Position numbers and translations under genes: made by a program
The notes under the pieces: model-generated
What the model saw: the letters and a program-made list of their open reading frames with translations, nothing else
Database searches by the model: none
Told to the model about the DNA's origin: nothing
IMG/VR virus record: IMGVR_UViG_3300024581_002845
Strand: one strand, 5' to 3'
Length of the DNA: 64,000 nucleotides
Source of the DNA: a virus
Shown: positions 9,924 through 51,595 of the stretch, in pieces
Layout: each line of letters starts with the position of its first letter
Position numbering within the stretch: position 1 is the stretch's first letter

Positions 9924-9930
9924 AGGTAAT

Positions 9931-9959
9931 AATATAAAGAAAATATACTAAAAAGACAA
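9931..9959 (-). promoter_or_regulatory. Class I promoter TTGTCT-N17-TATATT
   Basis: Exact 17-nt spacer, 7 nt upstream of the ATG at 9923. Confidence 0.65.
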
Positions 9960-27032: not shown

Positions 27033-27051
27033 CTCCTTAATATCATTATAT

Positions 27052-27085
27052 AAAAAAAATCCCAAGATTTCTCAAGGGATTTTTT
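27052..27085 (-). terminator. Intrinsic terminator
   Basis: AAAAAATCCC..GGGATTTTTT inverted repeat with a U-tract on the minus strand, after 27108. Confidence 0.65.
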
Positions 27086-27107
27086 AAACAAATTCTATTG
27101 TATTTTA

Positions 27108-33377: not shown

Positions 33378-33404
33378 GAATTACTTCGTTAACGTTCTTT
33401 ATAA

Positions 33405-33433
33405 AATATACAGAAAAAGAACGAGGAAGTCAA
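33405..33433 (-). promoter_or_regulatory. Class I promoter TTGACT-N17-TATATT
   Basis: Exact 17-nt spacer upstream of the methyltransferase. Confidence 0.7.
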
Positions 33434-35925: not shown

Positions 35926-35936
35926 ATTTCTACTAA

Positions 35937-35965
35937 AATATACGAATAAAAGAAAATAAAGACAA
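35937..35965 (-). promoter_or_regulatory. Class I promoter TTGTCT-N17-TATATT
   Basis: Same hexamers and spacing as the promoter at 9931-9959. Confidence 0.65.
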
Positions 35966-47402: not shown

Positions 47403-48174
47403 TTTCGATATCTTTTATATCGTTTATTGAGAAATGTAAAAACGGTTGATCGTTCTTGAGATCATGAAAATCGTATTTATCGTTCTCTATATCATAAATA
47501 CCATATCCATGATGTTTTACTGTTTCACCGAAATTCTGTTGTATTAAAGAACCTACCATCACAGCACGACCACCATCAGGTAACTCGAATACTTGTCTTT
47601 TGTGGATGTCACCACAAAGTAGGATGTCTAAATCCACAAAATTAAGTGGGGAATACCCTTCTTCAAACTCATATCCTGTATCAGTAGACAATCCCGCAAT
47701 CGGACTATGGAATAAACCAACATATAACCCCTCTCCTTTTTCAAATTCAGGTCTTTGATTATGTTGGTACAAAGAATAGACCACCCAATTTATATTTTCA
47801 TCCTCATACACCCCACTATCTTTATAGTATGATATCTTATCATTCTGTAACATATCTACAACAGGAGTTATACTATCAACTCTCTCATGGTTGTTCTCAA
47901 GAAAGTCATGATTACCCGGTATGATAACGACCTTACCCAACTCATTAGTAATATCGGTCAGGAACTTGGATGTGATAACTAATTGTTCATTAGATATATT
48001 GATCTTTTCATGCACGAGATCTCCCGCAATAACCACTCTAACCTCATCATATGAGTAATCTTTGATGCGTTCTTTTGCATCATCAATAAACCTTCTAAAC
48101 TGTCTTTCATAGTTATCGTGGTACTTATTTCGACGTATATGTATGTCGGCTGTATGTACAATTACTTTAATCAT
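47371..48174 (-). CDS. sbcD: SbcD/Mre11/T4 gp47-like metallophosphoesterase nuclease (short form)
   Basis: ADIH, AGDL, PGNHD, LFH, GDIHK motifs. Confidence 0.88.
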   Translation of the reverse strand: MIKVIVHTADIHIRRNKYHDNYERQFRRFIDDAKERIKDYSYDEVRVVIAGDLVHEKINISNEQLVITSKFLTDITNELGKVVIIPGNHDFLENNHERVDSITPVVDMLQNDKISYYKDSGVYEDENINWVVYSLYQHNQRPEFEKGEGLYVGLFHSPIAGLSTDTGYEFEEGYSPLNFVDLDILLCGDIHKRQVFELPDGGRAVMVGSLIQQNFGETVKHHGYGIYDIENDKYDFHDLKNDQPFLHFSINDIKDIENESETLLNIG

Positions 48175-48604
48175 CTAATTTCATTTTTTTACGATACTCA
48201 TCGTGTATTAAACTCTTGAATTTGGTAGTTGACCACCCATGAGATCGGTCAATCCAATGTATTGGGACATTTAACTCATCACCTGTAAAGGACTTATCCT
48301 TGTAATCGTCACCTAAGAACCTTACATCGGGTTGTATGTCTTTAATAAGTGTAAGAAGGTCCTCTTCGTATGTATATGTATATATGTTTGATACATATCG
48401 TAGTGAGAATAGAATTTTCATTCTTTCCTGAACCGATAAAATAGGTTTTAATTTCTCTTTAGGTCTCTCTATTGAAGGGTCAGTGTGTAATAATATGATA
48501 AACTGTTCACAGGTATCTGAACATTCCTTAAACATGTCTATATAACCCGGATGAATTACATCGAAGTTACCCGCAATAATACCTTTATCGTATTTTTTAC
48601 TCAT
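48167..48604 (-). CDS. Cytidylyltransferase-like protein (TagD family) 1
   Basis: GNFDVIHPGY, ER, RFLGDDY, RSHGWSTT. Confidence 0.85.
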   Translation of the reverse strand: MSKKYDKGIIAGNFDVIHPGYIDMFKECSDTCEQFIILLHTDPSIERPKEKLKPILSVQERMKILFSLRYVSNIYTYTYEEDLLTLIKDIQPDVRFLGDDYKDKSFTGDELNVPIHWIDRSHGWSTTKFKSLIHDEYRKKMKLDD

Positions 48605-49043
48605 TACCTATGTTTGGGTTTTGTTTTAATGTCTGTTTTGTGATCAAATCCTTGATTTTTGTTGTTGACCAATCGTGTGAACGAGTGGTGTAGATCACTT
48701 CAATATCTAAATCATCCCCTGTAAAGGATTTACCTATATAATCCTCACCCAAAATCCTAACTTGGGGTTTGAAGAACTTGATAAGGTCAAGTAGTTCCTC
48801 TTCTGTTTGGTATATGAACACCTCATCTATATATTTTATCGATGTTAGTGTTTTATACCTCTCATATATCGGAATTACAGGTTTATATTTTGATTTTCTG
48901 TGGAGTGATGGGTCTCTTTGTAAGAACACAATAAACCAATCACAATGTTGTTTTGCCGTTTCAAATGTATAGATGTAACCGGGGTGTAGAAGGTCAAAAT
49001 TACCCGCAGTAAATCCAATTTTCTTACCCTCGTACCTATTCAT
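48597..49043 (-). CDS. Cytidylyltransferase-like protein (TagD family) 2
   Basis: GNFDLLHPGY, YERY, RILGEDY, RSHDWSTT. Confidence 0.85.
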   Translation of the reverse strand: MNRYEGKKIGFTAGNFDLLHPGYIYTFETAKQHCDWFIVFLQRDPSLHRKSKYKPVIPIYERYKTLTSIKYIDEVFIYQTEEELLDLIKFFKPQVRILGEDYIGKSFTGDDLDIEVIYTTRSHDWSTTKIKDLITKQTLKQNPNIGNE

Positions 49044-49897
49044 TACTTTAAAACTTTAGACATATCCATTAATAGTATTTTTTGGATCACCTCCATTGGA
49101 ACTTTATATTCCTCAAAAGTCGAATCCTCTTTAACTAAGACAACGATAGACCCTAATAACTTTTTAGATGCGTATTCCGTACCCTCTAACATCTTTAATA
49201 GTAATTTACCATAGAATGGTAATTGTAGGTAGTAATGTCCAAGTGCGGTACTATCGATATTATCAAATGGTGGGTACATTTTCTTAGTATACCTCTGTTT
49301 TTTAAAATTTTCAGGTTTATTAGTTTTCCAATCAGTAATCAATATACCGTAATCAGTACCTTGTTTATTTTCAACTAACCAAACCTTGTCGGGTTGTCCC
49401 ACATAACCTAAATCGGGGTCACCTAATACTATTTCTGTATCAAGTAACACCGCATTTCTCTCGTGCATTAAATCAAGAAAGTCTTTACCCGCATCAATCA
49501 TGTTATTACTTCGAACAATCTGTTCTTCATCACATTCATATATGGGTTCCCTCACACTTTTATAATCCCCGTACTGAGAAATGAGTTCCTTCTCTAAAAT
49601 ATAATGTACTCGGCTACCTTGGTTGGTAGCATATGTACCTTTGTCTGCCCATTCTTTGAGTAATTCTTTTTGTTTTTGTTTATCACCTTTAGACATTCTA
49701 AGTGAGATACCTTCTGCATCGAACTCCTCGTAAAACTTCTTTATGATTTTAGATACTGATGGGTAATTGGATCTAATAATCCCATTCTCATCTCTCATAA
49801 AGTATAAATGGTCTTCTTCTATAAATGATAAATCAATATTTTTCCTTCTTTTATTAAGGATTTTTCTAATCTTCTCTGCTTCTTCTTTTAAATTCAT
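49043..49897 (-). CDS. PD-(D/E)XK (RecB/Cas4-like) exonuclease
   Basis: PSVSKI, GSRVH, TE, GQPD, DWKT, YYLQLPFY. Confidence 0.8.
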   Translation of the reverse strand: MNLKEEAEKIRKILNKRRKNIDLSFIEEDHLYFMRDENGIIRSNYPSVSKIIKKFYEEFDAEGISLRMSKGDKQKQKELLKEWADKGTYATNQGSRVHYILEKELISQYGDYKSVREPIYECDEEQIVRSNNMIDAGKDFLDLMHERNAVLLDTEIVLGDPDLGYVGQPDKVWLVENKQGTDYGILITDWKTNKPENFKKQRYTKKMYPPFDNIDSTALGHYYLQLPFYGKLLLKMLEGTEYASKKLLGSIVVLVKEDSTFEEYKVPMEVIQKILLMDMSKVLK

Positions 49898-50838
49898 TAA
49901 TCAAGTTGTATTTCTTCGTATCCACTTAAATTACCTCTCAAATCCGCAATATCGGAGTTACCTTCGATTTTGATTGTCCAAACCTTACCCATTAGTTTAC
50001 CCACATTCATTCTATGAAAGAGTTTCACACTGTCAACCCACGCATCACTGTCTAAAACGATAACCACCTTTTTTGCGTTATCGTAGACCTTTTCGAATAA
50101 ATTGTCTGTAATGAACTTACCTAACATGGGAACTGAGTTTTCTAAAAAAATACTATCAAAAACACCCTCCACTAAGTAAATTGGTTTGTCCCAATCAATC
50201 ATATGTTCGTTCCAAATCAAAGTATTTTTATCCGCTTGGGGATTCATGTACTTTCTCTTACTATAATTAAGGTAAGATCTTGCAACGAAGTAATTCAAGT
50301 CATCGTATTCATCATACGACGGTATAATTATTCTATTTTCATAAAGACCCTCATCACAATAACCGATATTGAACTTTTTAATCATTTCATCGGTTATATT
50401 TCTCGATCTGAGGTATTTGTATGCTTGTTTATATTTGTGTGTTAGTTTTCTACCGTATGATACGTCCGAAAAAGGGATGAATTCTTTTGGTAACCTAACT
50501 TTCTTATATGAACCCGTTGATCTTGATACAAATTCATCAGGTGTATACAGTTTAAAATCCCTTATTTGTGTTGGATTCCCATATTTAAAGACAAGTTTAT
50601 TAAGGTGTCCATGTGTGTAGTGTGATTCCGCACACACCCAACACTTATAAACAAACATTTTATAATTTATTTCTAAATTACCTTTACCGTCACCTTCGTC
50701 TAAGTCCTTTATATCATAAGAACAAACAGGACAATCGAAAGTAATCTGACCCCTCACGTCGTTATGTGACCTACTCTCACCAAATATATCGTGGAGTACA
50801 TCTACTAACGGTATAAAATCTACTTCTTGGGTCATCAT
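49897..50838 (-). CDS. DNA primase (Zn finger plus Toprim)
   Basis: CPVC..CWVC, YLRSRNI, IIIP, YFVARS, LVEGVFD, LDSD; start reassigned to MMTQEV. Confidence 0.88.
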   Translation of the reverse strand: MMTQEVDFIPLVDVLHDIFGESRSHNDVRGQITFDCPVCSYDIKDLDEGDGKGNLEINYKMFVYKCWVCAESHYTHGHLNKLVFKYGNPTQIRDFKLYTPDEFVSRSTGSYKKVRLPKEFIPFSDVSYGRKLTHKYKQAYKYLRSRNITDEMIKKFNIGYCDEGLYENRIIIPSYDEYDDLNYFVARSYLNYSKRKYMNPQADKNTLIWNEHMIDWDKPIYLVEGVFDSIFLENSVPMLGKFITDNLFEKVYDNAKKVVIVLDSDAWVDSVKLFHRMNVGKLMGKVWTIKIEGNSDIADLRGNLSGYEEIQLD

Positions 50839-50865
50839 ATATAAAATATACGAAAAATTTTTGAC

Positions 50866-50901
50866 AAAAAAAAGTCCCCGAGAACACCACTCCTCGGGGA
50901 C
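50866..50901 (-). terminator. Strong intrinsic terminator within the primase leader
   Basis: GTCCCCGAG/CTCGGGGAC perfect 9-bp stem followed by U8. Confidence 0.8.
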
Positions 50902-50951
50902 AACCAACCAACGTATAAGAAATACATCTTATACGCCCCGTCCTGTAATAA

Positions 50952-50980
50952 AATATAAGAAATTAAAAAGAGAAAGTAAA
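50952..50980 (-). promoter_or_regulatory. Class I promoter TTTACT-N17-TATATT
   Basis: Exact 17-nt spacer; reads into the structured leader. Confidence 0.55.
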
Positions 50981-50989
50981 GTACTTGAT

Positions 50990-51595
50990 CTACTTTTCTT
51001 CAGACTTTATTTTATTAACATATCCAATTACCGCCGTTGCGGCATCGCTCATATCGTAATTCTCTTTTTTGAGATTACCCGTTCTTGCATGTAACCATTC
51101 AACTTCGGGGAATAGGTCATTAACGTGTTCCCATATAACATGTTTCTTATCTATGTCTTTAGGGTATCCACCAAATAATACTCTTCTCCCTTTGGCATTT
51201 TCTCCAACTAAATCGGGGAATGCAAACTTACGTGCGTTATATGTTGAGATGAATGTTGGGACAATCCCTAACACATCAAAACATGACTTCAATACCATAC
51301 TATTATATCTTAATAGGGTACCTACCGTATAAACATTATTCGAATTTAATAGGGGTTCCTCAATAATGACTTTGGTAATACCCATATCCTTATAATTCTC
51401 CAAGTGTTTTCTAAACCCATCCGCCTTTTTGAGGAGTTCTTCTATTTTATCCTCAGGTTTGGGTTTTATTTTAGGTGAGAAATGAGTCAATTCTAACAAA
51501 TGTGAGGCAGTAATATCAAATAACGCCCATCCAATTGTTTTGGTTGATATATCTAAACCCAAAATCTTTGGTTTATTTTTAAATTTCTTGTCCAT
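50990..51595 (-). CDS. RuvC-like Holliday junction resolvase
   Basis: ILGLDISTKTIGWA, IIEE, DMSDA; TTTACT-N17-TATTAA upstream. Confidence 0.75.
   Translation of the reverse strand: MDKKFKNKPKILGLDISTKTIGWALFDITASHLLELTHFSPKIKPKPEDKIEELLKKADGFRKHLENYKDMGITKVIIEEPLLNSNNVYTVGTLLRYNSMVLKSCFDVLGIVPTFISTYNARKFAFPDLVGENAKGRRVLFGGYPKDIDKKHVIWEHVNDLFPEVEWLHARTGNLKKENYDMSDAATAVIGYVNKIKSEEK

Follow-up and report, generated by a model that had tools for sequence, protein, structure and literature searches.

Introduction

The PR′-tR′ 6S RNA of phage lambda and the NusG-paralogue leaders of RfaH/ops, UpxY and LoaP share one layout, in which a promoter is soon followed by a strong intrinsic terminator and then by a long operon. 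The put RNA of phage HK022 consists of two adjacent stem-loops that make RNA polymerase resistant to terminators. We know of few small RNAs from virulent or large phages and of none from phages of Bacteroidota, a phylum in which the mapping of RNA-based regulation is only beginning.

Phage-encoded regulatory small RNAs have been reported, for example lambda PreS (bioRxiv 10.1101/2024.10.31.621285), and reviewed (PMC12197685). In Bacteroides thetaiotaomicron, the GibS and FopS family comprises trans-acting small RNAs that combine a single-stranded seed with a Rho-independent terminator (PMC11697453). RbpB, a Bacteroides RRM protein that binds small RNAs of the GibS/FopS type, prefers single-stranded G/U/A-rich RNA in vitro (bioRxiv 10.1101/2021.04.27.441718). 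Bacteroides has neither Hfq nor CsrA (PMC13370968). This absence is believed to extend to the Flavobacterium lineage and to the whole phylum, and RRM-type proteins appear to replace Hfq and CsrA in Bacteroidota.

The DNA analysed here, called the window below, is a stretch of 64,000 nt from a virus (IMG/VR record IMGVR_UViG_3300024581_002845). The element under study lies between a RuvC-like gene and a primase gene.

Results and Discussion

Genomic Context of the Element

All genes in the part of the window around the element were found on the minus strand. The element lies in the 151-nt gap that leads from the RuvC-like gene to the primase gene (Table 1), among genes for resolvase-like, primase, exonuclease and SbcD-like proteins. 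Between the end of the RuvC-like gene and the element, there is no separate terminator. The G+C content of the element was 0.47, compared with 0.36 for the genome and 0.10–0.34 for the other intergenic gaps, so that the unusual GC-richness pointed out in an earlier note on this DNA was borne out.

Table 1. Positions of the element, its parts and the flanking genes in the window.
Feature	Position	Strand	Details
RuvC-like (RNase H-fold) Holliday-junction resolvase candidate, 201 aa	50990–51595	−	PHROG 159, E 5e-8
P1, Bacteroidota-type promoter-like site	50950–50980	−	−33 TTTA at 50977–50980, 19-nt spacer, −7 box TATATTTT at 50950–50957
Predicted small RNA, ~80 nt	50866–50945	−	From inferred start (50944–50945) to end of U-tract
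5′ single-stranded purine-rich tail, (A)CAGGACGGGG	50936–50945	−	Alignments A5 and A6; conserved core ACGGG(A/G)
Hairpin 1, CGUAUAAGA / UCUUAUACG, 6-nt loop	50912–50935	−	Perfect 9 bp, 11 with G-U pairs
Single-stranded linker, UUGGUUGGUU	50902–50911	−	GUUGG in nearly all primase-anchored relatives
Hairpin 2, terminator stem of 11 bp (7 G-C), 6-nt loop, GUGGUG(U)	50874–50901	−	
U8 tract	50866–50873	−	Completes intrinsic terminator; relatives carry 8–9 T
P2, −7-type box TATATTTT	50843–50850	−	4 nt before primase ATG
DnaG-type DNA primase, 313 aa, downstream	49897–50838	−	Pfam DNAG_N, E 3e-9; PHROG 47, E 1e-38

Pfam and PDB sequence searches with the 201-aa RuvC-like protein gave no match. Its N-terminal motif KILGLDISTKTIGWALFD was kept in relatives; this is the RNase H-fold motif common to RuvC and YqgF, and it is similar to the RuvC-I motif of Cas9. 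In a tblastn comparison with the homologues in the collected loci (L001–L166), the identity of the RuvC-like protein (50990–51595) was 78–94%, compared with 57–90% for the primase. Behind the exonuclease gene, two adjacent cytidylyltransferase-like genes (PF01467) were observed at 48167–49043 on the minus strand. The corresponding neighbourhood of Flavobacterium phage immuto contains a gene for an NMN adenylyltransferase of the NadR type.

Architecture of the Element

The ends of the RNA were derived from the promoter geometry and the terminator. The layout given in the earlier note, with a tail, two hairpins, a U8 tract, upstream hexamers and a 27-nt gap, was present throughout. The hexamers TTTACT and TATATT lie at 50980–50952 with 17 nt between them. 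The purine-rich stretch between the promoter-like site and hairpin 1 is ACAGGACGGGG, and 27 nt separate the U-tract from the primase ATG (50838). Covariance model R1 matched positions 50866–50944 with 86 bits (E 6e-20), and this was its sole match in the 64-kb window.

The folding energies of hairpin 1 and hairpin 2 were −12.2 and −19.9 kcal/mol, respectively. A 91-nt stretch of the element folded at −35.7 kcal/mol, compared with −20.4 ± 2.8 kcal/mol for dinucleotide shuffles (z = −5.5), and none of 200 shuffles was as good. Hairpin 2 was the strongest terminator-like site in 12 kb according to a terminator scan. Its GC-rich stem-loop is directly followed by the U-tract on the transcribed strand, which is the form of an intrinsic terminator.

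Promoter-Like Sites P1 and P2

The yardstick for a promoter of the sigma-A type was a −33 TTTG and a −7 TAnnTTTG about 19–21 nt apart, the latter spanning −12 to −5. The −7 box TAnnTTTG of Flavobacterium psychrophilum sigma-A is located at −12 to −5 (PMC9723704). With this box position, transcription from P1 would begin with the A of AGGAC or a directly neighbouring position, at ~50944–50945. A TAnnTT box (consensus TATATTTA) was present in 94 of 100 distinct relatives, mostly 3–7 nt ahead of the start of the RNA model. The general form of P1 in relatives was TTT-N20-TATATTTA. Its TTT was 95–97% conserved at a fixed spacing of ~20 nt before the box, and the spacer drifted. The frequencies of the box positions in relatives were 0.85–1.0, and those of the upstream TT were 0.95–0.97. 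Judged by its sequence, P1 has the form of a promoter of the Bacteroidota sigma-A type.

A P2 box was present in 81 sequences, and 19 others had none in range; in 76 of the 81, it began exactly 15 nt past the T-run, and it ended 3–9 nt ahead of the ATG. The P2 motif was also found upstream of five other genes of the window, with 7 matches, 6 of them on the sense strand, compared with 2.0 expected by chance. Since the box recurs at a fixed distance, the primase appears to have a promoter of its own, P2. This putative promoter probably uses the T-run of the U8 tract as its T-rich −33 region.

With the flavobacterial box position, the mRNAs of the primase and of several other genes would be leaderless or nearly so. 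Leaderless mRNAs are rare (5.5%) in F. psychrophilum (PMC9723704). A T-rich run followed by TATATT, with its end just 3–9 nt from a start codon, was observed at 50839–50873 (minus strand), 9929–9954, 27045–27059, 33403–33417 and 35935–35949. At two sites of the window, a terminator apparently supplies, with its T-run, the −33 region of the promoter that follows.

Distribution of the RNA Family

The primase-anchored set consisted of 6 IMG/VR loci and 80 metagenome loci, whose primases were 54–98% identical. The element was located upstream of the primase in at least 72 of the 80 metagenome loci. A covariance model was built from 24 primase-anchored sequences. In the primase-anchored loci, it gave one match per locus and 65 matches altogether, representing 47 distinct sequences. 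A motif-pattern scan of IMG/VR yielded more than 119 stretches among the matches listed; 69 of the 74 new loci among them were true members according to the covariance model. The family covers more than 100 uncultured large phages and at least ~90 distinct sequences, on marine and freshwater contigs of up to 333 kb. Each of four contigs of 142–183 kb contained one strong match, and two of the four also contained one weak match each (17–20 bits).

A search of Rfam 15 gave no match at the gathering thresholds and only noise at E values up to 10, the best sub-threshold score being 19.6 bits against a cut-off of 58.7 bits. The Rfam search, which the earlier note had proposed as a check, thus gave no match to a known aptamer or leader family. 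ARAGORN found no tRNA or tmRNA, and a search of GenBank phage DNA found no similar sequence. The nearest cultured primase was that of Flavobacterium phage immuto, with 32% identity. The covariance model had no match in the 160-kb genome of this phage, where a plain terminator occupies the corresponding place. The predicted small RNA family is absent from Rfam 15 and new to the catalogues. That the family is real and widespread is strongly supported.

Conservation of Structure and Sequence

Two alignments were used for the analysis of base pairing. Alignment A5 was gathered by primase homology, and alignment A6 came from the IMG/VR pattern scan; both were fitted to the covariance model before pairs were counted. 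Compensatory changes were observed in 15 of 15 modelled pairs (6/6 in hairpin 1 and 9/9 in hairpin 2). Covariation across homologous leaders, which the earlier note had named as a check, was thus found for every modelled stem pair. Paired cells reached 98.0% in A5, compared with 77.3% in shuffles, and 98.6% in A6, compared with 58.0% (0/500 shuffles in both cases). The covariation score was 0.633 in A5 and 0.989 in A6, compared with 0.215 and 0.248 in the respective shuffles (0/500 each), and it did not exceed 0.29 in slid controls. Compensatory changes above both shuffled and slid controls characterize the element as a predicted structured non-coding RNA.

When folded individually, 46 of the 47 distinct relatives formed two or more hairpins, the last of which had its stem directly against the U-run, and the swaps in the stems can readily be recognized by eye. 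Because MAFFT had misaligned one clade, hairpin 1 was missed when RNAalifold was given the raw alignment; the covariance model recovered it. Among the paired positions, 52 G-U and 2 A-C combinations were counted. The excess of G-U over A-C indicated that folding takes place on the sense strand.

The apex of hairpin 1 was a GNRA tetraloop (GAAA, GCAA or GUAA) in most relatives, and the stem was longer in the clade of the window. In one marine subclade (L053, 7312–7436 on the minus strand; L109, L117, L123, L129, L130, L140 and L191), an insertion of ~55 nt was observed in this apex. By eye, the insertion appears to lengthen the stem into a long, imperfectly paired helix, and the short reading frames inside it are not conserved. 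The terminator stem was rewritten throughout in many IMG/VR members, including an exchange of the G-rich and C-rich arms, while its loop GUGGUGU was nearly invariant.

In the primase-anchored set, the RNA core was 0.8–0.93 identical to the copy of the window, compared with 0.65–0.70 for the primase DNA, and the unpaired parts ranked among the best-kept positions of the core. The unpaired ACGGGA, GUUGGU and loop GUGGUGU were all conserved above the primase gene. The invariance of the motifs in A6 was partly imposed by the search pattern, and A5 alone is unbiased in this respect.

Independence from the Flanking Genes

The position of the element relative to its neighbours was found to vary among relatives. 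In three loci (L004, L101 and L105), the element stays behind RuvC, and a gene for a 407-aa class-III aminotransferase lies between the element and the primase. The inserted gene has a P2-like box of its own. In another clade, the element is still ahead of the primase and is 250–880 nt away from RuvC. The modules of the element are rearranged in L138 and L141, in which UUGGUUGG occupies a hairpin loop beside a small hairpin of the GNRA type; the GUGGUGU terminator is present there, and the 5′ tail is missing. L152 has decayed to a plain terminator and has lost the conserved motifs. With a predicted promoter and terminator of its own, and separable from both neighbours, the element has the layout expected of a small RNA gene.

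The aminotransferase gene was observed in some marine relatives, and the copy in L004 (1732–2955) belongs to Pfam PF00202 (E 3e-69). L144 (2300–2500) has, on either side of the RNA, promoter-like regions that match each other almost completely over ~30 nt. This suggests that a local duplication may have created or renewed the RNA unit in that locus.

Host and Genome Size

The hosts are probably Flavobacteriia, because the nearest cultured primases come from Flavobacterium and Maribacter phages, because the putative promoters are of the Bacteroidota type, and because a 248-kb contig with the same module was binned in a Flavobacteriaceae MAG. When 185,579 species genomes were scanned for the exact pattern, this phage-like contig was the one true match. 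It carries a RuvC-RNA-primase-exonuclease module (L191, CBFHJJ010000001.1) and may be either a binned phage genome or a hint of the host. A homologue in host genomes was sought with the covariance model in 151 genomes of Flavobacteriaceae, the family to which a Winogradskyella genome (G005) belongs, and only matches of 24–28 bits were obtained. These look like chance matches, with UUGGUUGG beside a terminator, and they probably lie within or after coding sequence. CheckV-type completeness values of 43–59% for the 142–183 kb contigs, together with contigs of 315–333 kb, suggest genomes of ~300 kb.

Possible Function of the RNA

The element may be a gene in its own right, encoding a small structured non-coding RNA that is transcribed from P1, terminates itself and acts in trans, and the chance of this is put at somewhat better than even. 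The RNA would be ~70–80 nt long (~125 nt in one subclade). Its own intrinsic terminator would end it and would also end the RuvC-like transcript. It would be made and would accumulate during infection of a Flavobacteriia-like host, and it would act through its exposed G/U-rich motifs. These might pair with C/A-rich sites in a highly conserved RNA of host or phage, or the RNA might bind or titrate a conserved RNA-binding protein. The earlier note had also offered an independent small RNA as an option, and this option gained ground from the conserved putative promoter and terminator, the covarying stems, the invariant unpaired motifs and the autonomy from the neighbours.

Three unpaired G/U/A-rich motifs were recognized: ACGGGA at the 5′ end, UUGGUUGGU in the linker and GUGGUGU in the terminator loop. 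Marine and freshwater phages share these motifs unchanged although their primases are only ~55% identical, and a partner of the RNA must therefore be strongly conserved. Some of the conservation has ordinary causes, because the terminator is needed for the RuvC transcript and the T-run may be constrained by P2.

Targets of the motifs were sought in several ways. In the 55 translation-start regions of the window, seed duplexes were no better than those of shuffled seeds. In duplex scans of the flanks of 47 loci, complementarity recurred at a single site, which lies in the exonuclease gene. This site was rejected because it encodes a T-N-Q codon motif whose synonymous positions vary freely. Complements of the motifs occurred in the window more often than in shuffles, scattered through coding sequence, and the raised counts were tentatively attributed to codon usage. 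The complement of the linker was not enriched in two flavobacterial genomes relative to a reversed control.

Other roles were also considered. Pairing with the 16S 3′ end would leave one central mismatch. A G-quadruplex would have to do without conservation of its first GG. Against a guide role with the RuvC-like protein stand the absence of a variable guide segment and the small size of that protein, 201 aa. A CRISPR-repeat mimic and Chi-like or primase-recognition motifs were further possibilities.

A more specific role is possible, though unlikely: the RNA could be a decoy or sponge, made by the phage, that captures a universally conserved host component. Three exposed motifs containing UGGU would serve for this purpose, two in the UUGGUUGGU linker and one in the GUGGUGU loop. 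RRM-type global RNA-binding proteins or the ACCA-3′ ends of tRNAs would be candidates for the captured component. If this were true, host RNA metabolism would be reprogrammed during infection. The RNA would then be, to our knowledge, the first riboregulator of Bacteroidota phages, with a mechanism new in phages.

The family is a well-defined candidate for Rfam and for experiment. Its conserved partner, once found, could reveal how abundant environmental phages take over their hosts.

Alternative Explanations

The earlier note had proposed, among other readings, an attenuator or riboswitch-like switch in which the 5′ GGAC/CGGGG can pair with the 5′ arm of the terminator, so that two structures exclude each other. 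Such a switch in cis would use the alternative pairing as an antiterminator, and the choice between the structures, made by a ligand or protein, would control the primase. The complementarity itself was confirmed in the window sequence, where GGAC:GUCC and CGGGG:CCCCG amount to 4–5 bp, and a partial transcript pairs GGAC with GUCC before the 3′ arm emerges. This held for the one sequence; across relatives, the alternative pairs showed no excess covariation, and the mutually exclusive structures were not upheld. In A5, 68.6% of cells were paired for one set of alternative pairs and 71.3% for the other, which is the level of shuffles (126/500 and 169/500, respectively); in A6, 46.3% were paired, compared with 48.0% in shuffles. 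In ~15 distinct relatives, the polarity of the terminator arms is swapped and the 5′ tail is unchanged, which makes the alternative pairing impossible. Forced alternatives folded at −19.5 and −28.1 kcal/mol, compared with −35.5 kcal/mol, a cost of 7–16 kcal/mol, and the better of the two still contained a 7-bp terminator. No Rfam aptamer matched, the downstream gene is not always the primase, and the downstream gene has a promoter-like box of its own. With no covariation, the energy cost, P2 and the inserted genes, the proposed primase attenuator or riboswitch is contradicted by the comparative data and excluded, and a cis-acting switch of any such kind is scarcely credible. A promoter, a hairpin and a terminator in a row do not necessarily make a switch, and a tempting misreading is corrected here. 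The order of a promoter, ~80 nt, a strong terminator and a long co-oriented gene block would also suit a module for factor-dependent readthrough. P1 would then be constitutive, most transcripts would stop at the terminator with the short RNA as a by-product, and a phage factor, for example NusG, loaded on the 5′ tail or hairpin 1 would carry the polymerase into the replication operon. The conservation of the promoter-proximal sequence and of the hairpin is consistent with such loading. It is unlikely all the same, for L138 and L141 lose the 5′ tail and keep the linker and loop motifs, the invariant terminator loop and linker would be left unexplained, and there is one such site per contig of ~150 kb. 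Readthrough is also not needed, since the primase has a promoter-like box of its own that belongs to a recurring class.

The element might also be simple punctuation between two genes. Hairpin 2 would be the terminator of RuvC, the T-run the −33 region of the primase, hairpin 1 a stabilising or insulating 3′ structure, and P1 no working promoter. The RuvC-like gene has no other terminator, compact terminator-then-promoter arrangements occur elsewhere in the window (for example at 27045–27090), and L152 keeps a plain terminator with the conserved motifs gone, all of which would fit. Plain terminators, however, do not keep an invariant loop and an upstream linker across completely rewritten stems. 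P1 has kept its box and its spacing in spite of drift in the spacer sequence, the near-identical duplicates P1 and P2 of L144 suggest sites of the same kind, and the unpaired parts are conserved above the primase coding sequence. Punctuation alone is accordingly regarded as distinctly unlikely. More doubtful still is an element that works at the DNA level beside an ordinary terminator, its hairpins and G/T-rich motifs acting in single-stranded or duplex DNA as a replication origin, as a primer site for an R-loop, as a signal on the lagging-strand template for the loading of primase or helicase, as a recombination signal of the Chi type or as a site bound by a regulator. It would agree with the location among replication and recombination genes, and the G/T-rich motifs may be similar to known Chi sites and primase recognition sites. 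Covariation and G-U bias are also compatible with a same-strand hairpin in single-stranded DNA, and the strand bias is compatible with a lagging-strand template if replication is co-directional with transcription. On the other hand, a GC-rich stem that runs straight into a U8–9 tract, together with a promoter immediately ahead, marks a transcription unit, the GNRA tetraloops of hairpin 1 are an RNA motif, and no AT-rich unwinding element was identified at the site. The cumulative GC skew was monotonic across the site, which counts weakly, since the skew follows the direction of transcription.

Comparison with Known Systems

Like the PR′-tR′ and NusG-paralogue leaders, the element has a strong terminator at a short distance from a promoter-like site and ahead of a long operon. 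It differs from them in that the downstream gene has a promoter-like site of its own and that no qut- or ops-like element was established. In addition, the most conserved parts here are the linker and the terminator loop, which are unused in those systems. The put RNA of HK022 is likewise a phage RNA of ~70 nt with two stem-loops right after a promoter. However, put has no terminator and acts in cis on its own polymerase, whereas the second stem-loop of the element is a canonical terminator, and the two have no sequence or Rfam similarity.

The predicted small RNA resembles small RNAs of the lambda PreS type in being a small non-coding RNA carried by a phage, with a presumed action on host or phage expression during infection. 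Known phage small RNAs come mostly from temperate coliphages of Hfq-containing hosts, whereas the present family occurs in uncultured large phages and has no homology to them. With GibS and FopS, it shares the short length, a promoter sequence of the Bacteroidota type, conserved unpaired regions and a terminal GC-rich hairpin with a U-tail. The unpaired motifs consist only of G, U and A, the composition that RbpB prefers in vitro, which is a weak hint that they may bind a protein. Compared with GibS and FopS, the phage RNA has no sequence similarity, is phage-encoded and single-copy, and contains an extra internal hairpin.
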